This document shows positions 38,145 through 50,134 of a DNA stretch of 64,000 bases, one piece after another. Numbering within the stretch: the stretch's first letter is position 1; each line of letters opens with the position of its first letter. The translations under genes and the position numbers were made by a program. The DNA lies in NCBI RefSeq assembly GCF_056712565.1, contig NZ_CM160072.1. One strand, written 5' to 3'. A model generated the notes under the pieces. The model did no database searches. It was not told the origin of the DNA and saw only the letters and a list, made by a program, of their open reading frames with translations.

Positions 38145-38328
38145 ATCGTAAGAATAGAGCCTGACGGTAAGAAAACGCAAAAAGCGAGATATCTTCCATA
38201 AAAATGTATCGTTTGCAGAAGAATAAAAATAGCCTGGAAACCGCCTCGGGGAATAGGAAATAGCCAGGTGTGAATGGCTTTGTTAGTCGCTAAAGTTGGG
38301 CCATCTTATCTACAGGTGACGGATCGCC

Positions 38329-39249
38329 ATGACAAACTTTACGACCAGCACGCCGCATGACGCATTATTTAAATCCTTTCTCACACACTCTGACACCGCG
38401 CGGGATTTTATGGAGATCCACTTACCCAAAGATTTACGTGAACTGTGCGATCTCGATAGCTTAAAACTGGAATCCGCCAGCTTTGTCGATGAAAAATTGC
38501 GGGCGCTACATTCCGATATTCTGTGGTCGGTAAAGACCCGTGAAGGCGATGGCTATATTTATGTAGTGATTGAACATCAGAGCCGTGAGGATATTCATAT
38601 GGCCTTTCGTCTGATGCGATATTCCATGGCGGTGATGCAGCGCCATATCGAACATGATAAACGCCGGCAGCTACCACTGGTCATCCCGATGCTGTTTTAT
38701 CACGGTAGCCGTAGCCCTTATCCTTGGTCTTTGTGCTGGCTGGACGAATTTGCCGACCCAACTACCGCACGGAAGCTTTATACCGCCGCGTTCCCGCTGG
38801 TGGATATCACTGTCGTGCCAGACGACGAGATTGTGCAGCATCGCAGAGTCGCCCTGTTGGAGTTGATCCAAAAGCATATTCGCCAGCGCGATCTGATGGG
38901 GCTTATTGACCAACTGGTAGTATTACTGGTTACAGAGTGTGCTAATGACAGCCAGATAACTGCGCTGTTAAATTACATTTTACTGACTGGTGATGAAGCG
39001 CGTTTTAATGAGTTTATCAGTGAAATTACCCGTCGACTGCCACAACAAAGGGAGCGAATAATGACGATTGCAGAGCGAATTCATAATGATGGATATATAA
39101 AAGGGGAACAGCGCATTCTTCGATTGTTTTTGCAGAATGGGGTAGATCCTGAATGGATACAAAAGATTACCGGACTTTCGGCAGAGCAAATACAGGCATT
39201 AGAGCAGCCCTTGCCTGAGCGTGAGCCTTATTCATGGCTCAAGAGCTAA
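38329..39249 (+). CDS. rpnD: Recombination-promoting nuclease RpnD (PD-(D/E)XK, Rpn/YhgA-like); intact here
   Basis: 306-aa uninterrupted ORF with Rpn-family N-terminus ([25 protein letters not shown]). Confidence 0.8.
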
Positions 39250-39267: not shown

Positions 39268-39376
39268 CGCAAAGCTGCCTGATGCGCTACGCTTATCAGA
39301 CCTACATTATCTCTGCAATCTATTGAATTTGCGCGGTTTGTAGGCCGGATAAGGCGTTCACGCCGCATCCGGCATG
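39268..39376. repeat. BIME-like pair of REP elements
   Basis: GCCTGATGCGCTACGCTTATCAGACCTACA and TGTAGGCCGGATAAGGCGTTCACGCCGCATCCGGCA in opposite orientation. Confidence 0.65.
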
Positions 39377-39654
39377 AACGAAGCACACTTTACGTGGCGA
39401 TGATAGTGACCTTCCTGCACCAACCTTGCCGCCGCCATTTATGTGAACGGTACATTAACGCTGCTGGTGGCAGCAAATGCAGACCCGGTGCGTGTTACAG
39501 CAGGTGAGAGATGAACGGTTAAAGGATATTGGGTTATGCAGGGAGGATGTGGTGTAATGGAGAGAGTCCTTCACGAAACGATGGGATTTATATGTCACCT
39601 CGTCAGATAAGGGGTTATTATTGCGAAATCATCGCTTCACGGAAAGACGTCAGA

Positions 39655-41748
39655 ATGAAAGCTACAGAAGCCCGCCTACTCGATTTTTTAAAACGTTCGC
39701 AGCAGTTCGTTATTACCATTTATCAACGGACTTATTCATGGACAGAACAACAATGTCGGCAACTTTGGGACGACATCATTCGTGCCGGAAAGCGTGACGA
39801 TATATCAGCGCATTTTATCGGTTCGGTTGTTTATATTGAGCAGGGGTTGTATCAGGTTTCTGGTATTTCTCCGTTACTGGTCATTGATGGTCAACAAAGG
39901 CTGACGACCGCAATGTTGCTGATTGAGGCTTTATCGCGTCATCTTGGCGAAGACGAAGTTTTTGATGGCTTTTCAGCAATGAAATTGCGTAATTATTATT
40001 TACTCAATCCTTATGAGTCCGGCGAGAAAGGATTTAAATTACTGCTGACCGAGACTGATAAAGACAGTTTGCTGGCGTTAATAAAACAAAGACCAATGCC
40101 AGAAAACTATTCCCATCGAATAATGGAAAACTTTACTTTCTTTGATGAACAAATTACCAAACTCGGTGATGACTTGATCCCCTTATGTCGTGGGTTAGCA
40201 AAGTTATTAATTGTCGATGTGGCGCTTAATCGTGGTCAGGATAATCCGCAACTGATTTTTGAAAGTATGAACTCCACCGGTAAGGCATTAAGTCAGGCCG
40301 ATCTGGTGCGCAATTTTATTCTGATGGGCCTCGAACCAGAGCATCAAACCCGGTTGTATGAAGATCACTGGCGTCCAATGGAAGTCGCGTTTGGTCAGCA
40401 AGGTTACAGCGAATATTTTGACAGTTTTATGCGTCATTATCTGACGGTAAAAACGGGGGAGATCCCTCGGACAGATGAAGTCTATGAGGCATTTAAACTC
40501 CATGCCCGCAGCCAGAGTGTTGCTGAAAAAGGCGTAGATCGGCTGGTTGAAGATATTCACATCTACGCGGAGTATTACTGTGCAATGGCATTGGGAAAAG
40601 AAAGTGACAAATCGCTTGCTACGGCTTTTCAGGATTTGCGCGAGTTAAAGGTCGATGTGGCGTATCCTTTCTTACTGGCGCTTTATCATGACTATAAAAA
40701 TGGCGTTTTGTCTCACGAAGATTTCCTGAGCATAATTCGTTTAATTGAATCTTATGTTTTCCGCCGTGCAGTATGTGCGATTCCGACAAATTCTCTTAAC
40801 AAGACGTTTGCTACTTTTTATAAGGTCATTAATAAAGAAAAATATCTGGAAAGTATTCAGGTACATTTTCTGAATCTGCCTTCATATCGTCGTTTCCCCA
40901 ACGATGATGAATTTAAACGGGAATTAAAAGTTCGTGATCTCTATAATTTCCGTAGTCGCAGCTACTGGTTACGACGACTGGAAAACGATAAACGCAGAGA
41001 GCGCGTGGAAGAGTTTACGATTGAGCATATTATGCCGCAGAACGAAAATTTGTCGGCTAAATGGCGTGAAGAGCTGGGAAGTGACTGGCAACGCATTCAT
41101 AAAGAACTGTTGCATACGTTGGGGAATCTCACATTAACGCGCTATAACTCCCGCTACAGTGACAGACCTTTCGCGGAAAAACGCGATATTGAAGACGGCT
41201 TTAAACATAGCCCGCTCTATTTGAATATCGGTCTTGGACAGTGCGAAAAATGGGATGAAGCAGCCATTCGCGCCCGTGCAGATCGTCTGGCCGATCTCGC
41301 GGTTCAGGTCTGGCAAGCGCCTGCTCTTCCTGAAGAGGTTTTAGCTGTTTATCGGGCGCAGCCGGAGAACAAAACCAGTTACAGCCTGAGTGATTATCCT
41401 TTTCTTGCTGATGGTTCGCATAGCCGGGTGTTATTTGATCATCTTCGCGATGAAGTTATGCGCCTGGACGCAGGGATCACGCAGGAAGTTTTAAAGCTCT
41501 ATATTGCGTTTAAAGCTGAAACGAATTTTGTTGATGTTGTACCGCAAAAAAGCCGACTGCGGTTGTCGCTTAATATGCAGTTTCATGAACTGGTCGATCC
41601 GAAAGGTATTGCCAAAGATGTGACAAATGTTGGGCGATGGGGCAATGGTGATGTGGAAATTGGTTTCAGTGACCTCGCACAACTTCCTTACATTATGGGA
41701 TTAATTCGTCAGGCATTTGAAAAACAGATGGAGAGCGCGTTGGTATAA
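39655..41748 (+). CDS. DUF262/DUF1524 (GmrSD-like) protein, candidate type IV restriction / defence nuclease
   Basis: ORF 39529-41748; start set at MKATEARLLDF (697 aa). N-terminal DUF262 signature (YQRTYSW ... LVIDGQQRLTT) and C-terminal HNH-like DUF1524 signature (EHIMPQN ... LGNLTL..YN). Confidence 0.8.
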   Translation: MKATEARLLDFLKRSQQFVITIYQRTYSWTEQQCRQLWDDIIRAGKRDDISAHFIGSVVYIEQGLYQVSGISPLLVIDGQQRLTTAMLLIEALSRHLGEDEVFDGFSAMKLRNYYLLNPYESGEKGFKLLLTETDKDSLLALIKQRPMPENYSHRIMENFTFFDEQITKLGDDLIPLCRGLAKLLIVDVALNRGQDNPQLIFESMNSTGKALSQADLVRNFILMGLEPEHQTRLYEDHWRPMEVAFGQQGYSEYFDSFMRHYLTVKTGEIPRTDEVYEAFKLHARSQSVAEKGVDRLVEDIHIYAEYYCAMALGKESDKSLATAFQDLRELKVDVAYPFLLALYHDYKNGVLSHEDFLSIIRLIESYVFRRAVCAIPTNSLNKTFATFYKVINKEKYLESIQVHFLNLPSYRRFPNDDEFKRELKVRDLYNFRSRSYWLRRLENDKRRERVEEFTIEHIMPQNENLSAKWREELGSDWQRIHKELLHTLGNLTLTRYNSRYSDRPFAEKRDIEDGFKHSPLYLNIGLGQCEKWDEAAIRARADRLADLAVQVWQAPALPEEVLAVYRAQPENKTSYSLSDYPFLADGSHSRVLFDHLRDEVMRLDAGITQEVLKLYIAFKAETNFVDVVPQKSRLRLSLNMQFHELVDPKGIAKDVTNVGRWGNGDVEIGFSDLAQLPYIMGLIRQAFEKQMESALV

Positions 41749-41794
41749 CGTGGCGAATAATACCCGGTAGCACTGGCGCTACCGGGTCAATGTA

Positions 41795-42136
41795 TCAGGC
41801 GACTTTCTGTTTACCCGCAATCACCCCAATAAACTCCTGCACCTGCCTTTGTTTACGCGCCGACAGCTTGCACACCTGGCGAAGCGACTGCATCAGTTCG
41901 CTCTCTTCGGCGGCGGGGGGTTGGGCGGTGAGGACAATACAGCCTTCCATCACTTTGACATCTATCGCCGTGCCAGTGGCAAAACCGGCGGCTTCCAGCC
42001 ACTGACCTTTCAGGGTGATGGCGGGAATACGGCTGTAATCCGGGTAGCGACTCGCATAACTCACGGTTAATTGACGGTTATTTGCCGGGGAGACTTCTGC
42101 TTCGAACGGTTGTGCAATAGAATGCGTGTCAGTCAT
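41795..42136 (-). CDS. symE: SymE, SOS-induced toxin-like protein (113 aa)
   Basis: ORF 41795-42193; start set at [52 protein letters not shown], matching SymE. Confidence 0.85.
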
Positions 42137-42200
42137 GATTACTATTCTCCATAAATAGTGATTGTGATGAGCGGTGCGGGTGTGTTGGCGCACATCCGCA
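42120..42200 (+). ncRNA. symR: Putative SymR antisense sRNA overlapping the symE 5' end (approximate)
   Basis: SymR is known to be encoded antisense to the symE translation start; plus strand here includes GCGGGTGTGTTGGCGCACATCCGC hairpin. Ends not determinable. Confidence 0.35.
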
Positions 42201-42364
42201 TCGCGCTAAATACCTGGATATATCATCAGTAAATACAGGGAAAGTCCAGCTAAAAATAGAATAAAATGGGAAGTTTCTGGAACGATTTAAATATATTTGT
42301 GTGAGTTATGATTGGCGTAAAAATAATAAATAGCGCACCAGAAAGGTGCGCCAGAAAATAATGA

Positions 42365-43732
42365 TCAGGACTTTTTACGCGAGGCTTTTTTACCCCCGCT
42401 GGCTGCGCGTTCAGCTTTGATTTTCTCCAGCAACGCGGCGGCGCTGTTTTCACCGCTGATTAATTCCGGGTTTTCGGCCCGCCACTGGGCGGTGAGTTCA
42501 CCACGGAACGCTTTTGCCAGGATGGATTGCGTCAGATTGTTGACGCGGGCTAAGGCGTTGTTGACCTGTTTTTCTATTGTGTCGGCGTAGGCGAAGAGTT
42601 GCTCGACGCGGCGAACGATTTCAGCTTGTTCGGGAAGGGGGGGAACAGTTATTGGGTATGCAATTAATTTCTGTGCATTAATATTTGATTGACTGACCCC
42701 ATCAGATTTAACTGAATAGCAATATTGTCTCCCCAAAATGCTATTTAAATGGTAGTTAAGATAGTCAGGGTTTAAATCAGGTAAACATTGAACCCTAATC
42801 AAATAACCTGCATAAATAGCTGGTTGCTCTGATTTATATATGGCTGTTTTCCCGACAAGTTCAGGACTATTTGTACGATTGAATAATACATCATTGTACT
42901 CAAGTTTATACTTTTCAATTTCTATGGTATCTGACGTATAGACTAGATCCGTCCAGTCCAACTTTCCTCCCTGAAGATTGCCCATTCTTAATACAGGAAT
43001 GAGTCCTTCTTTATTAGACTTAGATGACGTTCCGTAACTTGGTTTTTTTATAAACTCCCCAAGTTTGCCTTCTCTCCACCCAGACAGGCTTGAATTATCT
43101 CTCCAGTCTTCAGTTAGTTTTCCTCTCACCGCTGCACCCAGAACCGCCTGACGAAAACGTTTCAGGATTTGTGGGATTTGCTCAAGACGTGCTTTGGTGC
43201 TGTCTACCTGTGCCAGCAGCGTATCGAGTTTTTCAGCGATGATTTTTTGTTCGGCAAACGGTACAAGAACAAATGGTAATGTTTTCGCAGAACTACCAGA
43301 AATTTCTTTAAAAGTTGTTCCTGTGCCCATTTCCTCTGCAATATGTCTGATGTTGCGGAGAAAGTAATATGCATAATCAGGAAAAATGTCTGAAGGAAAA
43401 GCAAAACTTTTGAAACCCTGGTTAGTCGCAATCTCATTTGCAGCAATAGCAACATATCCAATCGGTGCCCGGCTACTAAAAAGTATAGTGCCTTTGGGCA
43501 TTAGTTTTGCTGAACAAGAGGAATAGCCTAGTGTAGTTAAATCTCTGGCACCATGTGAGATATATTTCTCTTTATAACCGCTCAAATCGGCAGGCGTAAG
43601 CCAGGCGACTCCCTCACCCGAAGGTGCAAAATTTTCAGCGACTCCCGATTTTGGTGTCCCACCAGAGATGACATCAGCAATGTCGCCTATTTCAATCTGT
43701 TCCCACCCCTCCGGCAATTTCCCAGCACTCAT
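42365..43732 (-). CDS. hsdS: Type I restriction-modification specificity subunit HsdS (family IA), 455 aa
   Basis: N-terminus MSAGKLPEGW, central conserved region (EQKIIAEKLDTLLAQVDSTKAR...RFRQAVLG) and C-terminus (EQAEIVRRVEQLFAYADTIEKQVNNALARVNNL...) match EcoKI-type HsdS as I remember it; the two variable regions differ. Confidence 0.85.
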   Translation of the reverse strand: MSAGKLPEGWEQIEIGDIADVISGGTPKSGVAENFAPSGEGVAWLTPADLSGYKEKYISHGARDLTTLGYSSCSAKLMPKGTILFSSRAPIGYVAIAANEIATNQGFKSFAFPSDIFPDYAYYFLRNIRHIAEEMGTGTTFKEISGSSAKTLPFVLVPFAEQKIIAEKLDTLLAQVDSTKARLEQIPQILKRFRQAVLGAAVRGKLTEDWRDNSSLSGWREGKLGEFIKKPSYGTSSKSNKEGLIPVLRMGNLQGGKLDWTDLVYTSDTIEIEKYKLEYNDVLFNRTNSPELVGKTAIYKSEQPAIYAGYLIRVQCLPDLNPDYLNYHLNSILGRQYCYSVKSDGVSQSNINAQKLIAYPITVPPLPEQAEIVRRVEQLFAYADTIEKQVNNALARVNNLTQSILAKAFRGELTAQWRAENPELISGENSAAALLEKIKAERAASGGKKASRKKS

Positions 43733-45318
43733 TCCTTCACCCCACCAAATGCTTCTTCCAGCAACTGGCGCTGCGCATCCGCCTCATCGCTCGCCCCCAG
43801 TTCACGCATCAGCGCATCCAGTTCAGACAGCGCCTGTACCAGTTCACCCATCGCTTCTGCCGCTAATACATCCGGCTCCGGCAGGTTGTCGGCATCAATA
43901 CTGTCTTTATCTTTCAGCCAGGAGATATCCAGCGAATCGGATTTCGCGGTGCGGATCCACTCGCGGCTGAACTTGCGCCAGCGGCTGGTAGCAAGATGCT
44001 GGTCGGTGTTTTTGTTCTCTTCGCTGTCGGCAATTTCCGTCTCTTCGGCGTTAAAACTCCATTCACCTTCAGTGCGCGGGCTTAAGCCGTGCGGGTCTTC
44101 GCCAAACACGCGCTCAAACGGTTGCAAATGCTCGTCGGTAAACGGCGTGCGTTTACCAAAGCTCGGCATATTGGTCCGCAGGTCGTACACCCACACGTCA
44201 TCGGTGCAGTTCTTATCCTGATTCGGGTTCGCCACCGTCCCTTTGATAAAGAACAGCACGTTGGTCTTCACGCCCTGCGCGTAAAAAATACCGGTCGGCA
44301 GACGCAGAATAGTGTGCAGATGACACTTATCCATCAGGTCACGACGGATGTCCGTACCTTTGCCGCCTTCAAACAGCACGTTATCCGGCACCACCACCGC
44401 CGCACGACCGCCGGGGTGCAGCGTTTCGATAATATGCTGCATAAAGCACAACTGTTTGTTGCTGGTCGGGTGAACAAAGGTGCGGGTAATGTTGGTGCCT
44501 GCGGCGCTGCCAAACGGCGGGTTAGTGGCGACAATATGCGCCTTCGGCAGGTTTTCGCCGTCGCTGCCCAGGGTGTTGCCCAGACGGATTGCGCCGCCGT
44601 GGTCGAGGTTGCCTTCAATATCGTGCAGCAGGCAGTTCATCAGCGCCAGACGACGGGTGCCGGGCACCAGTTCGAGGCCGATAAACGCGCGGTGGATCTG
44701 GAAATCCTGCGTGTCGCCATCAAGGTCGTCCAGATCGTTAGTCTGCGACTTAACGTAGCGGTCGGCTTCAATCAAAAAGCCCGCCGTACCGGCTGCCGGA
44801 TCCTGTACCACTTCACGTGGCTGCGGTTTCAGCAGATGAATAATGGTTTTAATCAGCGGACGCGGGGTGAAGTACTGGCCCGCGCCAGACTTGGTTTCAT
44901 TGGCGTTCTTCTGCAGCAGCCCTTCGTACATATCGCCGAAGTCATCGCGCGACTTACCGTGCGCACCGTTGTACCAGTCCAGTGAATCCATATTGCTGAC
45001 CAGTGCGGTTATTTGTTTCGGCTCGGTGATGGTGGTACTAACATTATGAAAAACTGCCTGTACCAGCTTTTTGTCATCTTCGCCTAAATGCACGAGCATT
45101 TTTCGGTAGAACTGCAACTGCTCCTGGCCGATGCGGGATTTCAGGTCATCCCAGCGGTAACCTTCCGGCAGGTATTCCGCTTCCTGCCCGGTCTCTTTAC
45201 ACATTTTCAAAAACAGCAGCGAGGCGAGTTCATTGACGTAGTTTTGATAGGAAACGCCGCCATCGCGCAGGTTGTCGCACAGCTTCCACAGCTTCGCGAC
45301 CAGATCGTTATTGTTCAT
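43729..45318 (-). CDS. hsdM: Type I restriction-modification methyltransferase HsdM
   Basis: 529-aa ORF with N6-adenine methyltransferase motif (NPPFG); 4-nt overlap with hsdS. Confidence 0.9.
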   Translation of the reverse strand: MNNNDLVAKLWKLCDNLRDGGVSYQNYVNELASLLFLKMCKETGQEAEYLPEGYRWDDLKSRIGQEQLQFYRKMLVHLGEDDKKLVQAVFHNVSTTITEPKQITALVSNMDSLDWYNGAHGKSRDDFGDMYEGLLQKNANETKSGAGQYFTPRPLIKTIIHLLKPQPREVVQDPAAGTAGFLIEADRYVKSQTNDLDDLDGDTQDFQIHRAFIGLELVPGTRRLALMNCLLHDIEGNLDHGGAIRLGNTLGSDGENLPKAHIVATNPPFGSAAGTNITRTFVHPTSNKQLCFMQHIIETLHPGGRAAVVVPDNVLFEGGKGTDIRRDLMDKCHLHTILRLPTGIFYAQGVKTNVLFFIKGTVANPNQDKNCTDDVWVYDLRTNMPSFGKRTPFTDEHLQPFERVFGEDPHGLSPRTEGEWSFNAEETEIADSEENKNTDQHLATSRWRKFSREWIRTAKSDSLDISWLKDKDSIDADNLPEPDVLAAEAMGELVQALSELDALMRELGASDEADAQRQLLEEAFGGVKE

Positions 45319-45394
45319 TGTGAGTTCCGTAAATTAAACAACGGCCCGCATTGTTTGGGGCCGCAGAAGAAGAAATTGCCGAGGGTAATATACA

Positions 45395-45518
45395 CAAAAT
45401 CATTCAGGTTGCATCAAGGCGGCAAGTGAGTGAATCCCCGGGAGCGTACAGAAGTACGTGACCGGGGTGAACGAGCGCAGCCAACGCAGAGGCAGCCTGA
45501 AGGATGAAGTGTATACGT
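45395..45518. repeat. ERIC/IRU-like repeat in the hsdR-hsdM intergenic region
   Basis: GTGAATCCCCGGGAGCGTACAGAAGTACGTGACCGGGGTGAACGAGCGCAGCCAACGCA resembles the ERIC consensus including the ERIC1R/ERIC2 primer regions. Confidence 0.6.
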
Positions 45519-45519
45519 G

Positions 45520-48500
45520 TCAGGCCAGCTCGTCCCAGATATAATCGCTGAATTTATCAAGCAGGTTGTCGAGATTATCGTCAAAGGTTCTTTGTAGCAT
45601 CGCCTTACCGCCGCGGCGGTGGAAGTTGCCGGTTTTGAAGACATCGTCGTCGAGCACCACTTTCTCTTTCAGCGCCTGCGCTAAACGATCGAGCCAGCTT
45701 AATTGCTCGCTGCTCCAGTCGTTTTCACCCTTAATGCGCGTCAGCGCGTGATCGACACGTTCCTCAAACGGTTTCAGCGCATCGCCCACCGCAGCGCGGC
45801 GAATATGACCAATCAGCCGGGCGGCGATATCTTCATTGCGCGTCTCTTTCCATGCTTTGCGCAGGGAAGATTCCTCAAAATGCTGGCGGTCAAACCACTC
45901 CTGGAGCTCGACCAGCCCTTTACGGGTGAGATCGCGCGGGCGATTGATCACCGCCTGCAATGCCGGCTGCGCGTTCGGGGAACGTTGCACCAGCGAGTCA
46001 AAGGCTTCGAGGAAATCCTGCGGCGTGTCGTAATCACCGTACAGCGATTTTACACTCACCACTTCATCGTCGATATCGAGGAAGATCGGCGCATCATTCA
46101 GGTTGTTGATGTCCGTTTTCAGCTTTTCCAGACGGGCGATAAAGCCAGGCAGTTTGTTAAAGACTTCGGCGCTCCAGTGCGGCCCTTTTTCCCGCAGGCG
46201 CGAGGCGAAGCCGTTAAAGTTCACGCCCGCCGCGTCCTGGCATAGCTCATCCAGACGACGCACCTGTTTATCTATCGTTTCGCTGCGGTCACGGTTAAAC
46301 GTGGCCAGGCCGATGATGCGCTGGAGCTTCGCCACCAATTGTTCATGGCTGTGCTCGGCAAAGCTACGGCCATCCGCTTCGGTGATTTTATAGGTTTCTG
46401 AATCGGTAATTTCATTGACCAGCGTTTGCAGTTCCACCTTCGGACGCACCACCACCGGACGCATGGTGTCGACGCTCTCCAGCGTGCTGTAGATATCGAC
46501 ACAGTCGAAAATCTTAAAGCTGGTTTTATTCACGTCCGGGCATAAGCGCGTGGCGCGGCCTTTCATCTGCTCGTACAGAATACGGCTGCGTACTTTACGC
46601 AGGAACACGATATTACAGATCGACGGAATATCGACGCCGGTTGTCAGCAGGTCGACGGTTACCACGATATTGGGCAGCCGCTCTTTATTGAAGCGGGTGA
46701 TCATGGTCTGCACTTTGCGCGCGTCTTTATCGGCATCACCGGTGATCTTGATGATCGCGTCGTGCTCCAGTTGCGGATACTTTTTCTTGAACGCGGTACG
46801 CAACTCTTCCACCACCATATCGGCATGGGCATTGGTAACGCAGAAGACCAGCGTTTTTTGCGACCCGGTCGGGTCAAGGTAGTTGGTGAGCTCGTTACAG
46901 ACGGCGCGGTTAAACGCCGGGATCACCAGGCCACGGTTAAAGTCGGCGACCTCAAAATCCTGATCGTCTTCCAGGGTATCGTTGATCACTTCTCCCTGCG
47001 GGCTGATGCGCTCTACCTGTTCGCCCTTGGAGAGATAAACCCCCTCCTGGGCGTTGCGGGTGATGATCTGAATCGGCGGATCCTGGTCGATCAGAAAACC
47101 GTCGATAACCGCGGTACGGTAGGTATAACGGTAAACCGGCTCGCCGAAAATCTGCACCGTATGCAGCGCCGGGGTGGCGGTGAGGGCGATTTTTACCGCA
47201 TCGAAGTGATCGAGAATGCGACGGTAGGCAGAAACGTAATCCAGCTGGCTGCGGAACTGCAGCTCGCCTTCGGTCTGCTCTTTATCGAGAATATAGCCGC
47301 GATGCGCTTCATCGACGACGATACAGTCGTAACGGGCCACCGGCATCGGTTCATCTGATTGTAGGGTGCGTTTCACCAGCGACTGTACGGTGGCAACGTG
47401 AATTTTGGTGCTGTCTTCGGGGAATTTATCCGTCAGCCCTTTAATGTCGAAAATGCTGTTGAAGGTGTCGCCGTTAATACGCGTATCTTCAAACGCCCCC
47501 AGTGCCTGCTCGCCAAGAGAACGGCGATCGACAAGGAAGAGAATGCGTTTAAAACGCTGGGACTGGATCAGGCGGAACATCATGGCAATTGCGGTGCGGG
47601 TTTTACCGGTACCGGTCGCCATCGCCAGCAGGATCTCTTGTTGACCCTTGACGATTGCCTTTTCCACCGCGCGGACGGCATCTTCCTGGTAATAACGCAG
47701 GCCCAGCTCGCTCATGCCCGGGTTATCGGCAAACCACTGATTCTGTTTTTGCGGTTCGCTGCCGAGCATTTCCAGCAGCTCTTCCGGGCGATGCCACTCG
47801 GGTAAGGCTTTCGACATATTGCGGGTATCACGCACGTCGCGATACCAGATGCCACTTTTAGTCTTCATTGCTGCGCGATATTCGCGCCCGTTGGTGGAGT
47901 AGCAGAAGGGGATTTTAAACCGTTGTTGGCCGCTGGTGTCCTGCCAGCTAGTTTCATACTCCGGCACAGCTTCATGCACTTCATCCGGTGAGTAATGCTC
48001 AAGCAAGGTTTCCCGCAGGAAGCCATTATCGAAGCATTTGCTGTAGCGATACGACTCATTGAGCTTGCCGGGAACGTCGATATTTTTACGTTTCGCCTCT
48101 ACCACCGCGATGGGCTTGAGGCCGACAAACAGCACATAATCCGCAAAGCCCTGATTACCCGTTTCATCTTTCCCGGTCGGCCATTCGGCAATGGCTTTAT
48201 TGACGCCGGGTTCCGGGCGTGCGCCTTTGGAGAAGCGCAGGGTTTTGCTATCGGCCTGCCAGCCTGCTTTACGCAGTTGCGCGTCAATCAGGAAGCGACT
48301 CTCTTCTTCGCTAAGGTTGAGTGTGCGCTTGATGGCCTGATCGGTAATTTCTTTGTGGTAAGCCTTACGTTCCTGTTCGGTCTGTTTGGCCAGCTCCGCG
48401 TTCTTCTCGGCGAGCTGTGCTTCCAGCGCCGCAAGGCGAGCCTGGGTTTGCGCTTCTGTTTCCTGCTGTTTGCCTTCCAGAATGGCGATATAGCCGTTCA

Positions 48501-49032
48501 GGGCAACCAGCTTCTGCTGTTGCGCTTCGACTTCTGCCCGAGTCTGCGCTTTTTCTCGCGCCTGCTGTTCAAGCTGTTGTTTTAGCGTCAGCACTTCCTG
48601 GTGATAGAGGTTTTCGCCACGTTCCGGCAACACAAATACCGGCACCGGGAAGTCATAATCTTTGGTGACCAGACGGTAGTACCAGACAGCCAGGCGGAAC
48701 CCGAGTCGCAGGCACATCTGGGCATCGTCGAGATCGTTATGGTATTCGTGCACCGCCTGGTTACCAATGCGGCGTAATTTGTGGAATACAGAGAGAATGT
48801 TGTCATCAACGAAGGCGATTTTGCCGAGTTCGCGCAGGAGATCGTGTTGATTCTCACAAGGGGGGATGTTGAGTAACAGACCAAGATGTTTCGCTGTAGC
48901 TTCGCCAAACATACGCATTTTAATCAGCGTCGTGTTGGGATCATCCGGGTAGTTATTTTCCGCCGCACAGGCGATGGCATAAGTGAAGTCGTTGACGCCC
49001 TTCAGGAATTCGAAGTTGGATTTATTCATCAT
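45520..49032 (-). CDS. hsdR: Type I restriction endonuclease subunit HsdR
   Basis: 1170-aa ORF with helicase motif I (GTGKTRT) and DEAH-like VVDEAHRG; upstream of hsdM/hsdS. Confidence 0.9.
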   Translation of the reverse strand: MMNKSNFEFLKGVNDFTYAIACAAENNYPDDPNTTLIKMRMFGEATAKHLGLLLNIPPCENQHDLLRELGKIAFVDDNILSVFHKLRRIGNQAVHEYHNDLDDAQMCLRLGFRLAVWYYRLVTKDYDFPVPVFVLPERGENLYHQEVLTLKQQLEQQAREKAQTRAEVEAQQQKLVALNGYIAILEGKQQETEAQTQARLAALEAQLAEKNAELAKQTEQERKAYHKEITDQAIKRTLNLSEEESRFLIDAQLRKAGWQADSKTLRFSKGARPEPGVNKAIAEWPTGKDETGNQGFADYVLFVGLKPIAVVEAKRKNIDVPGKLNESYRYSKCFDNGFLRETLLEHYSPDEVHEAVPEYETSWQDTSGQQRFKIPFCYSTNGREYRAAMKTKSGIWYRDVRDTRNMSKALPEWHRPEELLEMLGSEPQKQNQWFADNPGMSELGLRYYQEDAVRAVEKAIVKGQQEILLAMATGTGKTRTAIAMMFRLIQSQRFKRILFLVDRRSLGEQALGAFEDTRINGDTFNSIFDIKGLTDKFPEDSTKIHVATVQSLVKRTLQSDEPMPVARYDCIVVDEAHRGYILDKEQTEGELQFRSQLDYVSAYRRILDHFDAVKIALTATPALHTVQIFGEPVYRYTYRTAVIDGFLIDQDPPIQIITRNAQEGVYLSKGEQVERISPQGEVINDTLEDDQDFEVADFNRGLVIPAFNRAVCNELTNYLDPTGSQKTLVFCVTNAHADMVVEELRTAFKKKYPQLEHDAIIKITGDADKDARKVQTMITRFNKERLPNIVVTVDLLTTGVDIPSICNIVFLRKVRSRILYEQMKGRATRLCPDVNKTSFKIFDCVDIYSTLESVDTMRPVVVRPKVELQTLVNEITDSETYKITEADGRSFAEHSHEQLVAKLQRIIGLATFNRDRSETIDKQVRRLDELCQDAAGVNFNGFASRLREKGPHWSAEVFNKLPGFIARLEKLKTDINNLNDAPIFLDIDDEVVSVKSLYGDYDTPQDFLEAFDSLVQRSPNAQPALQAVINRPRDLTRKGLVELQEWFDRQHFEESSLRKAWKETRNEDIAARLIGHIRRAAVGDALKPFEERVDHALTRIKGENDWSSEQLSWLDRLAQALKEKVVLDDDVFKTGNFHRRGGKAMLQRTFDDNLDNLLDKFSDYIWDELA

Positions 49033-49219
49033 TGTTATTAATCCATTGCTGTGTGGGCCTGTCCAAATATTTAAGGCCCATAACGCCCTATCTTAGCTTT
49101 CTGTACCTTTCCGGGCAATGACCGGAGTCACAGCAACTGACTCATTTCTAACGTGTTCGTCTATTTTGGTAGTGTTATAGTAGCCGAAAAACATCTACCT
49201 GATTCTGCAAGGATGTACT

Positions 49220-50134
49220 ATGACGGTTCCTACCTATGACAAATTTATTGAACCTGTTCTGCGTTATCTGGCAACAAAACCGGAAGGTGCAGCCGCGCGT
49301 GATGTTCATGAGGCTGCCGCGGATGCATTAGGACTGGATGACAGCCAGCGATCGAAAGTCATTACCAGCGGACAACTTGTTTATAAAAATCGTGCAGGCT
49401 GGGCACATGACCGTTTAAAACGTGCCGGGTTGTCGCAAAGTTTGTCGCGTGGCAAATGGTGCCTGACTCCTGCGGGTTTTGACTGGGTTGCGTCTCATCC
49501 CCAGCCAATGACGGAGCAGGAGATGAACCATCTGGCCTTCAATTTTGTGAATGTCAAACTTAAGTCACGGCCGGATGCCGTCGATTTAGATCCGAAAGCC
49601 GACTCTCCCGATCATGAAGAACTTGCAAAGAGCAGCCCGGACGATCGGTTAGATCAGGCGCTAAAAGAGCTTCGTGATGCGGTGGCTGATGAGGTTCTGG
49701 AAAACTTATTGCAGGTTTCTCCTTCGCGCTTTGAAGTCATTGTTCTGGATGTTTTGCATCGCCTGGGGTATGGCGGCCACCGTGATGATTTGCAGCGTGT
49801 TGGCGGTACTGGAGATGGTGGCATCGATGGTGTGATATCGCTTGATAAACTTGGCCTGGAGAAAGTTTATGTTCAGGCAAAACGTTGGCAGAATACTGTA
49901 GGCAGGCCAGAATTACAGGCATTTTACGGCGCACTGGCTGGGCAAAAAGCGAAACGTGGGGTGTTTATTACCACTTCTGGATTTACTTCTCAGGCGCGTG
50001 ACTTTGCCCAATCCGTCGAGGGTATGGTGTTGGTTGATGGGGAACGCCTGGTGCACTTAATGATCGAAAACGAAGTAGGGGTTTCTTCACGTTTGTTGAA
50101 GGTGCCGAAACTGGATATGGATTATTTTGAGTGA
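49220..50134 (+). CDS. mrr: Mrr type IV restriction endonuclease (modified-DNA dependent)
   Basis: 304-aa ORF divergent from hsdR, as in K-12. Confidence 0.85.
   Translation: MTVPTYDKFIEPVLRYLATKPEGAAARDVHEAAADALGLDDSQRSKVITSGQLVYKNRAGWAHDRLKRAGLSQSLSRGKWCLTPAGFDWVASHPQPMTEQEMNHLAFNFVNVKLKSRPDAVDLDPKADSPDHEELAKSSPDDRLDQALKELRDAVADEVLENLLQVSPSRFEVIVLDVLHRLGYGGHRDDLQRVGGTGDGGIDGVISLDKLGLEKVYVQAKRWQNTVGRPELQAFYGALAGQKAKRGVFITTSGFTSQARDFAQSVEGMVLVDGERLVHLMIENEVGVSSRLLKVPKLDMDYFE

Follow-up and report, generated by a model that had tools for sequence, protein, structure and literature searches.

The prototypes of type IV restriction of glucosyl-hmC DNA, Eco94GmrSD and GmrSD of E. coli CT596, are single chains in which a DUF262 domain with a DGQQR motif, a helical linker and a DUF1524 domain with a (D/E)H motif follow one another. 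Both are prophage-borne and are inhibited by T4 IPI*. HEC-06 and BrxU/HEC-05 are single-gene, autonomous enzymes that are embedded in methylation-based systems; the HEC-06 tested by Payne et al. 2024 (bioRxiv 10.1101/2024.01.29.577857) came from an Hma system, and its DGQQR and EH mutants were dead. TgvAB of Vibrio cholerae VPI-2 and RloF of Campylobacter lie inside type I restriction-modification (R-M) operons, and TgvAB consists of two proteins, the DUF262-only TgvA and TgvB. Mutation of DGQQR or (D/E)H abolishes defence by HEC-06, BrxU and TgvB. After transfer into E. coli, HEC-06, BrxU and TgvAB were active against modified phages, alone or as a pair, without the host system. DndI (PDB 9JFL) and SspE (6JIV, 7DRS) are nickases that have the same DUF262-DUF1524 order and also carry DGQQR, but they spare marked self DNA, which is the opposite logic to type IV restriction.

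The gene described here lies at 39655..41748 (+) of the window, the whole stretch of 64,000 nt analysed (contig NZ_CM160072.1, assembly GCF_056712565.1). The preliminary description had presented it as a candidate defence system, but a 2015 paper had already reported the gene and a 2025 catalogue lists it as CLS_001; its existence, family and location are all known. He et al. 2015 (Sci Rep, PMC4437046) named APECO1_2080 / UTI89_C5048 / c5421 as the homologue of GmrSD in the immigration control region and gave 24% BlastP identity to Eco94GmrSD and the CT596 enzyme. Silas et al. 2025 (Nat Commun, PMC12373910) assign WP_000648248.1 to CLS_001, their largest enterobacterial GmrSD cluster, of which a representative was assayed against T2, T4 and T6; five systems proved newly active in that study. 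Supplementary Dataset 6 of that paper places the CLS_001 label at record coordinates 4967613..4969706, matching the window gene. The texts of the two papers give no phenotype or target for the gene, the outcomes per cluster being presented in figures, and a literature search by locus tags found no paper testing it. The finding is correct but ordinary, namely an intact GmrSD-family defence nuclease gene in place of McrBC.

Identity and intactness of the gene

One frame is open from 39529 to 41748 (+), and the ORF listing gives exactly 697 aa from an ATG at 39655 to the end at 41748. This single frame and both of its neighbours, rpnD and symE, were found as claimed in the preliminary description. 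The DNA of the gene is 100% identical to APECO1_2080 (WP_000648248.1) of APEC O1 and to the gene of many ExPEC genomes, and the identical 697-aa protein occurs on at least 1000 contigs. The island context of the published gene is also the same (rpnD, symE, hsdSMR, mrr, yjiA). Only the choice of start differs, as He et al. 2015 used a start giving 733 aa; the 697-aa choice is backed by the family alignment.

The current PGAP annotation splits the locus into a pseudogene ('DUF262, incomplete, missing C-terminus') and a 387-aa protein. For the window allele the split is an artefact, because the ORF is intact, the family profile aligns end to end, the predicted single-chain fold is confident, the catalytic residues are kept, dN/dS is 0.04-0.08, and the full 2094-nt CDS was called in an earlier RefSeq annotation. 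The O157:H7 allele, as sampled in strain 180-PT54, carries a frameshift caused by a 1-nt deletion at codon 267.

Domain organisation and predicted structure

The Pfam search proposed in the preliminary description gave significant matches, far beyond chance, to both domains named there. The DUF262 / GmrSD_N ParB-like NTPase domain (PF03235, E 1.3e-32) covers residues 9-222 (39679..40320, +), and the DUF1524 / GmrSD_C His-Me finger nuclease domain (PF07510, E 1.5e-26) covers residues 415-547 (40897..41295, +). A third domain at the C terminus had been overlooked: DUF5655 (PF18899, E 3.4e-13), an alpha/beta sandwich at residues 591-690 (41425..41724, +). The motifs DGQQR, EHIMPQ and LGNLTL were present where they had been noted.

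The DUF262 domain contains Y23-Q24-R25-x-Y27-S28-W29 (nt 39721-39741, +), D78-G79-Q80-Q81-R82 (DGQQR; nt 39886-39900, +) and F202-E203-S204-x-N206 (nt 40258-40281, +). Among 65 diverse homologues D78, Q80, Q81, R82 and N206 were invariant, and Q24, R25, Y27, W29, G79, F202, E203 and S204 were conserved at 90% or more. In the nuclease domain EHIMPQ (residues 457-462; nt 41023-41040, +) holds E457-H458 and LGNLTL (residues 489-494; nt 41119-41136, +) holds N491, with N498 further on. P461 and N491 were invariant in the same 65 homologues, while conservation of E457, H458, Q462 and N498 was at least 90%.

The AF2 model of the 697-aa protein had an overall pLDDT of 91.6. The linker at residues ~223-414 (40321..40896, +) is all-helical, with continuous helices at residues 228-406, and the PADLOC Orf5 profile aligns without a break over residues 10-553. 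The DUF1524 domain forms the beta-beta-alpha arrangement in the model (beta strands 455-458 and 492-495, then helix 498-501). All the features by which the GmrSD family is defined (Pfam GmrSD_N and GmrSD_C; Machnicka et al. 2015) were found in one chain: DUF262 with the complete QR / DGQQR / FxxxN motifs for nucleotide binding and hydrolysis, the helical linker, and DUF1524 with the (D/E)H...N...N catalytic set, here E-H...N...N. The GmrSD/BrxU-type architecture read from the sequence earlier was borne out by Pfam, PADLOC, the fold comparison and the literature on the same gene.

DUF5655 has a YdhG/YjbR/MotA-CTD-like fold. This fold is seen in small DNA-binding 'double-wing' proteins, and it also serves protein-protein contacts in frataxin and in type III secretion chaperones. 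When the DUF5655 model was searched against AFDB, most matches belonged to its own family or were short 'predicted transport protein' entries, and none pointed to a function; in NCBIfam no model matched the gmrSD-like protein.

Comparison with characterised systems

Full-length PADLOC matches were obtained to 'Orf5' (PDLC02693, 1.8e-221, 735 bits), HEC-06 (PDLC04155, 2.7e-66, 222 bits) and mREase_IV (5.9e-27). Because the score for Orf5 was 735 bits and that for HEC-06 only 222, the protein belongs to a family related to HEC-06 and not to the same cluster. With HEC-06 it also shares the EHxxP form of the nuclease motif (EHICP in HEC-06, EHIMP here). The 'Orf5' model is numbered among the phosphorothioate-system models; from this numbering and the fold match to DndI we suspect that Orf5 is a dnd-associated gene.

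Among solved structures the phosphorothioate-sensing DndI and SspE come closest, ahead of BrxU. The AF2 model superposes on all three, with fold matches of 2.9e-16 for DndI (TM 0.55 on target), 6.9e-14 for SspE and a distant 4.1e-5 for BrxU, and in the sequence comparison with solved structures DndI/SspE were best (2.4e-12). However, identity to DndI and SspE is only 16-19%, and both lack DUF5655. No dnd or ssp genes adjoin the window gene, whose neighbours are rpnD, symE, hsdSMR and mrr, and none were present among 20 screened neighbours of relatives. The phosphorothioate-sensing tyrosine of DndI, Y25 (Y23 here), was considered as a discriminator and rejected, since the YQR motif that contains it is general to DUF262.

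The prototypes Eco94GmrSD and CT596 GmrSD agree with the window protein in domain order, helical linker, DGQQR, (D/E)H and the single chain, but they have no DUF5655. No second DUF262 ORF was found beside the window gene and, unlike TgvAB, the window system is one protein and lies outside the hsd operon.

Position in the restriction island

In K-12 (NC_000913.3) the order at this position is rpnD-yjiR-yjiS-yjiT-yjiV-mcrC-mcrB-symE, in agreement with the preliminary description. The absence of a McrBC-like ORF held as well: K-12 McrB and McrC had no tblastn match in the whole 64-kb window (E<=1e-3), and at the same threshold no homologue of K-12 YjiT or MdtM was found in the window. Between the stops of yjiS and symE the gmrSD-like gene takes the place that McrBC has in K-12, and it lies between the conserved anchors yjiN and yjiA, as an alternative to mcrBC. 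Its assignment to this slot of the immigration control region agreed with both the K-12 comparison and the literature on the same gene. The window has the K-12-like order uxuR-yjiC-iraD-hypT, and by direct comparison the ibeA/GimA island of APEC O1 is absent from it.

The left neighbour is rpnD (38329-39249, +), followed by two REP elements (39277-39305 and 39344-39373). The cassette had been described as bracketed by REPs on one side and symE on the other. The symE side stood, as the match to K-12 sets in again at the stop of symE. The REPs had to be given up as a boundary and belong to the conserved flank, because K-12 holds the same REPs at the same place after rpnD and ~190 nt separate them from the true exchange junction. 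A query containing the REPs had a median of 34 matching places per E. coli genome. By sequence comparison the exchange junctions are the stop codons of yjiS and symE.

Two remnants were detected by blastn and tblastn against K-12 and by alignment with K-12 and O157: an internal 77-nt piece of yjiR (39395-39471) and the 3' end of yjiS (39473-39557), in which PGAP calls a 26-aa hypothetical protein. The loss of yjiR and yjiS is a separate deletion that left these remnants behind. The left end of the exchanged cassette is a leader (39561..39654, +), sequence after the yjiS stop that is common to the O157 allele and diverges from K-12. On the right a 46-nt spacer (41749..41794) separates the convergent stops of the gmrSD-like gene and symE, and a repeat search located a perfect 10-bp hairpin in it (41762-41787). 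The right-hand anchors of the cassette are symE (41795-42136, -), with 95% identity to K-12 SymE by tblastn, and the symR antisense RNA (42131-42207, +; Rfam RF01809, 95.8 bits).

A promoter-like site in the leader (39592-39621) matched no better than shuffle expectation, the spacer hairpin did not fit the terminator consensus, and promoter and terminator scans around the gmrSD-like gene gave nothing above shuffle expectation. As the scans stayed at shuffle level, no expression signal is claimed for this gene.

The rest of the restriction island spans 42365..50134. It comprises type IA hsdS (42365-43732, -), hsdM (43729-45318, -) and hsdR (45520-49032, -), which encode proteins 44%, 99% and 99% identical to those of EcoKI/K-12, and mrr (49220-50134, +), 99% identical to K-12 Mrr. 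The low identity of HsdS indicates a type I specificity different from that of EcoKI. The gmrSD-like gene is not a member of the hsd operon. The earlier label of a 'single-gene' system is plausible here, given that the gene runs towards symE and the hsd genes in convergent orientation. Close relatives elsewhere, by contrast, are mostly found within operons of type I R-M or other methylation-based defence.

Relatives and selection

Full-length homologues with 57-77% identity were found across many phyla and in archaea; the family includes archaea (methanogens among them), cyanobacteria and CPR bacteria. The frames were intact in 6 of 6 compared homologues and dN/dS was ~0.04-0.08, and the family is under strong purifying selection. 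The Kiritimatiella homologue has 71% amino-acid identity, with synonymous sites saturated.

The gene lies within 8 kb of hsdM/S/R at 35 of the 49 informative loci, often within the operon and with overlapping stop and start codons. As with TgvAB and RloF, close relatives are located between hsdS and hsdR or after hsdR. Most of the other informative loci have the gene beside other methyltransferase-based systems, while several have no adjacent methyltransferase. E. coli alleles with 98-100% identity adjoin different type I families, relatives with 60-74% identity lie within type I systems with Hsd proteins that share just 25-38% identity with the reference Hsd queries, and for other relatives the setting is a BREX, type III, type II or DUF499/DUF1156 system. 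This variety of partners around a conserved protein supports autonomy.

Predicted function and alternative readings

The gmrSD-like protein is probably an autonomous, NTP-regulated, modification-dependent nuclease, although we hold this view with some reserve. The type IV action is predicted from the characterised relatives Eco94GmrSD, BrxU, HEC-06 and TgvAB. DUF262 would bind and hydrolyse NTP and thereby gate the nuclease domain, and DUF1524 would cut incoming DNA with a base modification foreign to the host, such as the hypermodified cytosines of T-even phages. Host DNA would be spared because it lacks the recognised mark. More speculatively, DUF5655 may contribute to DNA binding or to the choice of target. 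The protein would stand in for McrBC in the immigration control region and may complement the neighbouring EcoKI-type type I system and Mrr, as it would attack DNA that evades methylation-based restriction through being modified.

Several points count against this reading. The closest solved relatives, DndI and SspE, sense a host mark and not a phage mark; the conservation seen with the Kiritimatiella homologue is unusual for an enzyme presumed to be in an arms race with phage inhibitors; modifications of the T-even type are not the obvious target for the archaeal, cyanobacterial and CPR members; and NCBIfam contains no model for the protein. One alternative is an effector like SspE/DndI, a rather unspecific nickase whose NTPase is stimulated by a host epigenetic mark so that it is released from marked DNA and cuts unmarked incoming DNA. 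The mark would most plausibly be N6-methyladenine set by a partner type I, type III or BREX methyltransferase. DndI (9jfl) and SspE being the best sequence and fold matches, the numbering of Orf5, the best PADLOC family, with the phosphorothioate models, and the frequent proximity to hsd or other methyltransferase genes all speak for such an effector. We nevertheless consider it unlikely. The protein keeps 60-77% identity while partner families and specificity subunits differ completely, and hence no sequence-specific mark can be what it reads. The occurrence of near-identical alleles next to different type I families, several loci without an adjacent methyltransferase, the lack of dnd/ssp neighbours, and the embedded relatives TgvAB, BrxU and HEC-06, which function without the host system, argue in the same direction. 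A broader form of the idea, to which we give a similarly small chance, is that the DUF262-DUF1524-DUF5655 subfamily is a universal add-on effector for methylation-based immunity and reads a general host mark (e.g. m6A) or the state of its partner, as SspE/DndI do, instead of acting as a classical type IV enzyme. If true, this would explain the range of embedding systems (type I, type III, BREX, DUF1156) in hosts as far apart as E. coli and methanogens, the 57-77% identity combined with saturated synonymous sites, and self-mark sensors as the nearest solved relatives.

The habitual embedding in R-M, BREX and related operons would also suit a guard or back-up nuclease that is normally silent and is switched on once the methylation-based system next to it has been put out of action by a phage anti-restriction protein (cf. 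PrrC with EcoprrI). DUF5655 would then be an interaction or sensor module, in line with the use of its fold for protein-protein contacts, and the high conservation would reflect a conserved protein partner or trigger. However, no single conserved contact could serve partners of such diversity, the window gene is a separate convergent transcription unit with symE/symR between it and hsd, and no precedent is known in the GmrSD family, which makes a guard role quite improbable. That the gene is in decay or has no part in defence, a leftover in the island without a current role, is very improbable. Such a state would account for the PGAP pseudogene and 387-aa fragment and for the frameshifted O157 allele, but the uninterrupted ORF, the unbroken profile alignment, the confident one-chain fold, the retention of all catalytic residues and the low dN/dS are against it.

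Frequency in E. coli

The EcoSal Plus 2025 review (PMC12707154) makes the same assignment of the gene and gives GmrSD in 12% of 9,040 immigration control loci. Since about a quarter of complete genomes carry the gmrSD-like gene, it is probably among the commonest barriers to phage or engineered DNA in clinical E. coli, and phage therapy and the transformation of wild strains would both gain from knowledge of its target. Among complete E. coli genomes carriage was ~25%, as against 11% for mcrBC, a more than twofold excess over mcrBC at this locus, and the main ExPEC lineages were among the carriers.

Open reading frame, domains and predicted structure

The gene lies in a single open frame (39529..41748, + strand), and translation from the ATG at 39655 gave, without interruption, the 697 residues that the preliminary description had assigned to 39655-41748. 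The original annotation of APEC O1 used an upstream ATG and a 733-aa product (PMC4437046). Matches to Pfam and to the PADLOC family both begin within 10 residues of ATG 39655, which makes this codon the better start. Over its first 1.3 kb the gene had a GC content of 0.41-0.43, compared with about 0.5-0.55 in the flanks.

The motifs DGQQR, EHIMPQ and LGNLTL, noticed earlier, are located at residues 78-82, 457-462 and 489-494. Both domains proposed for the protein gave significant Pfam matches, GmrSD_N (PF03235, DUF262) at residues 9-222 (E 1.3e-32) and GmrSD_C (PF07510, DUF1524) at residues 415-547 (E 1.5e-26), but the two-domain description was incomplete, as it missed a third domain, DUF5655 (PF18899), at residues 591-690 (E 3.4e-13). 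In an alignment of 65 diverse full-length homologues, the residues that were invariant or at least 90% conserved were Q24, R25, Y27, W29, D78, G79, Q80, Q81, R82, F202, E203, S204 and N206 in the N-terminal part and E457, H458, P461, Q462, N491 and N498 in the nuclease part. They make up the complete nucleotide-hydrolysis and His-Me finger sets as defined for the GmrSD family.

AlphaFold2 modelled the protein as a confident single chain (pLDDT 91.6, pTM 0.81). Among solved structures Foldseek matched the model to DndI (9JFL; E 2.9e-16, TM 0.55 on the target), SspE (7DRS; E 6.9e-14) and BrxU (7P9K; E 4.1e-5), and a PDB sequence search ranked the three in the same order. The top PADLOC family was 'Orf5' (PDLC02693; E 1.8e-221, residues 10-553); the HEC-06 profiles matched over their own full length (E 2.7e-66), and the C-terminus matched the candidate family PDC-S18. 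The DUF5655 domain is compatible with a DNA-binding or contact module, although this is not proof, and an AFDB search with the DUF5655 model gave no functional lead.

Junctions of the exchanged cassette

In K-12 MG1655 the gene order is rpnD-yjiR-yjiS-yjiT-yjiV-mcrC-mcrB-symE-hsdSMR-mrr, in agreement with the yjiR to mcrB order stated beforehand. The window carries rpnD, two REPs, short remnants, the gene, symE/symR, hsdS, hsdM, hsdR and mrr. Tblastn of K-12 McrB, McrC, YjiT and MdtM against the whole 64-kb window found nothing, which bears out the reported absence of an McrBC-like ORF. The REP elements (39277-39305 and 39344-39373) had been taken as one border of the cassette, but they belong to the conserved flank, since homology to K-12 continues through rpnD and both REPs. 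Beyond them remain 77 nt from the interior of yjiR (39395-39471) and the final 80 nt of yjiS (39473-39552). PGAP annotates a 26-aa 'hypothetical protein' at 39477-39557 (WP_020233658.1, annotated at this place in many ExPEC genomes), which is the C-terminal end of YjiS (DUF1127).

O157 strain 180-PT54 retains intact copies of yjiR and yjiS, with the gene directly after them. A leader of about 95 nt after the yjiS stop is common to this strain and the window, and divergence from K-12 starts exactly there. On the right side K-12 homology restarts at the symE stop codon. With these two junctions the exchanged cassette spans about 39561-41794 (2.2 kb); its K-12 counterpart is yjiT-yjiV-mcrC-mcrB, about 7.6 kb. 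A deletion separate from this exchange removed yjiR and the 5' part of yjiS. The 46-nt spacer before symE contains a perfect 10-bp hairpin (41762-41787); in consensus scans neither this hairpin nor a promoter-like site at 39592-39621 was above chance.

HsdM, HsdR and Mrr of the window were 99% identical to the K-12 proteins, and HsdS (42365-43732) was only 44% identical to EcoKI HsdS. The divergence of HsdS relative to HsdM and HsdR points to a type IA system of the EcoKI family with a different recognition specificity. The window lacks mdtM (at 38181-38328), which K-12 has between yjiN and rpnD, and rpnD (38329-39249), a pseudogene in K-12, is an intact 306-aa ORF.

Prevalence, alleles and annotation

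Of 5426 complete E. coli genomes, 1360 (about 25%) carried the gene at a coverage of at least 80%, and 582 carried mcrBC. In the protein collection the exact protein was present on at least 1000 contigs. The allele of O157 180-PT54 (L089 3001-5093) has lost one nucleotide from a G5 run (GGGGG to GGGG) at codon 267, equivalent to window 40451-40455, and the frameshift splits it into ORFs of 293 and 387 aa. In several further O157:H7 and bovine strains the match was 2093 nt long, the query minus one base, which suggests the same lesion; the 25% would thus in part count a disrupted gene.

In the current RefSeq/PGAP annotation the 697-aa ORF, although intact, appears as two features (12406-13059 and 13336-14499 of the extracted locus L001): a pseudogene ('DUF262, incomplete, missing C-terminus') and a protein of 387 aa ('GmrSD restriction endonuclease domain-containing protein'). 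Neither feature covers residues 219-310. The full CDS was present in an earlier annotation (APECO1_RS28005, WP_000648248.1). For this allele the split is an annotation artefact, and the 387-aa gene model was probably derived from frameshifted alleles.

A second E. coli allele in the same island (76% identical, 699 aa, 595 member sequences; 10001-12100 in loci L006-L008) adjoins, in divergent orientation, a type I system of another kind, with an HsdM of 781 aa. Downstream of it are an unannotated 244-aa ORF (12144-12878) and a BrnA antitoxin gene.

Conservation and genomic context of homologues

Full-length three-domain homologues of 57-77% identity occurred in other Enterobacteriaceae, many other Gammaproteobacteria and Alphaproteobacteria, isolates of Kiritimatiella, Geothrix and cyanobacteria, and metagenome bins assigned to Planctomycetota, Chloroflexota, CPR phyla, Methanosarcina and Methanosaeta. 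Copies at 98% identity to E. coli in bins labelled Bacillota and Collinsella are almost certainly contaminating E. coli contigs. An exhaustive search gave 17,762 representatives at E<=1e-3, some with another C-terminal domain or none. The homologous ORF of Siccirubricoccus measures 1013 aa (L084 9056-12097), which suggests that it is extended at the N-terminus or fused to the gene upstream.

Nei-Gojobori estimates of dN/dS were about 0.04-0.08 in comparisons with alleles of E. coli, E. albertii and Citrobacter. In comparisons with the Kiritimatiella and Oceanimonas homologues, synonymous sites were saturated and amino-acid identity was 71-73% over 700 residues (window 39655-41745), which argues for constraint and not recent transfer alone. 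Such constraint is unusually tight for a defence nuclease in a presumed arms race.

The Kiritimatiella homologue lies between hsdS and hsdR (hsdM-hsdS-gene-hsdR, 4-nt overlaps), and in Oceanimonas, Halomonas-type and Idiomarina-type loci the order is brxR-hsdM-hsdS-bro-hsdR-gene. Among 49 loci of relatives with enough flank, 35 had hsd genes no more than 8 kb away, in most cases on the strand of the gene. Neighbours in the remaining 14 include BREX PglZ/BrxL, DUF499 with a DUF1156 methylase and PLD-helicase, type III Mod/Res, a type II methylase with a nicking enzyme, and Mokosh-like and Ppl-like proteins. The Hsd partners were only 25-38% identical to the reference Hsd proteins used; the gene itself was 60-74% identical. 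Earlier work has described that type I R-M genes are enriched around GmrSD homologues, as well as RloF of Campylobacter and embedded GmrSD-like genes (TgvAB, BrxU, HEC-05/06). One Bryobacterales bin carries in the same island, 8 kb downstream, another GmrSD-like gene that is distantly related (25% identity; L035 19948-22065).

Probable function

Two mechanisms are documented for DUF262-DUF1524 proteins: type IV restriction of phage-modified DNA (GmrSD, BrxU, HEC-06, TgvAB), and sensing of a host mark, by which the nuclease is released from self DNA (SspE, DndI). A generalised form of the latter, in which the protein would sense m6A or the state of a partner system, draws on the fact that DndI and SspE, the nearest solved relatives, are host-mark sensors and that the partner systems are nearly all methylation-based. 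It is nevertheless unlikely, and type IV restriction is probable, because the gene replaces McrBC within an island of restriction genes, no dnd/ssp partner lies next to it in the window, the same allele adjoins unrelated type I systems, an adjacent methylase is sometimes missing, and embedded relatives act alone against modified phages. A PrrC-like guard role is less likely still, and that the gene is simply decaying is very improbable. As a type IV enzyme the product would cut DNA carrying a phage modification.

Previous descriptions of the gene

The interpretation as a GmrSD-family gene is real and correct but already known for this exact gene. He et al. 2015 (PMC4437046) name it (APECO1_2080, UTI89_C5048, c5421, ECP_4674 and others); they class it as a GmrSD homologue that has diverged, with 24% identity to Eco94GmrSD, and place it in the immigration control region, from which McrBC is missing. 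According to a 2025 EcoSal Plus review (PMC12707154), 12% of 9,040 such loci hold a GmrSD homologue. Silas et al. 2025 (PMC12373910) clustered enterobacterial GmrSD proteins, and the largest cluster, CLS_001, includes the APEC O1 CDS 4967613..4969706 (WP_000648248.1), the CFT073 and 536 copies and D782_3934. In the same study a synthesised representative per group was challenged with T2, T4 and T6, and five further groups were active. A literature search by locus tag found no paper with a phenotype for the gene. The present analysis adds the third domain with its fold, the actual cassette junctions, figures for prevalence, estimates of how widely and how strongly the protein is conserved, a count of how often relatives are embedded in methylation-based systems, the affinity to DndI/SspE and the annotation artefact.

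The APEC O1 CDS is the window gene base for base. Despite this 100% identity over the gene, the window does not come from APEC O1, because the ibeA/GimA island of that strain is missing at 26000-28400, where uxuR-yjiC-iraD-hypT stand in K-12-like order.
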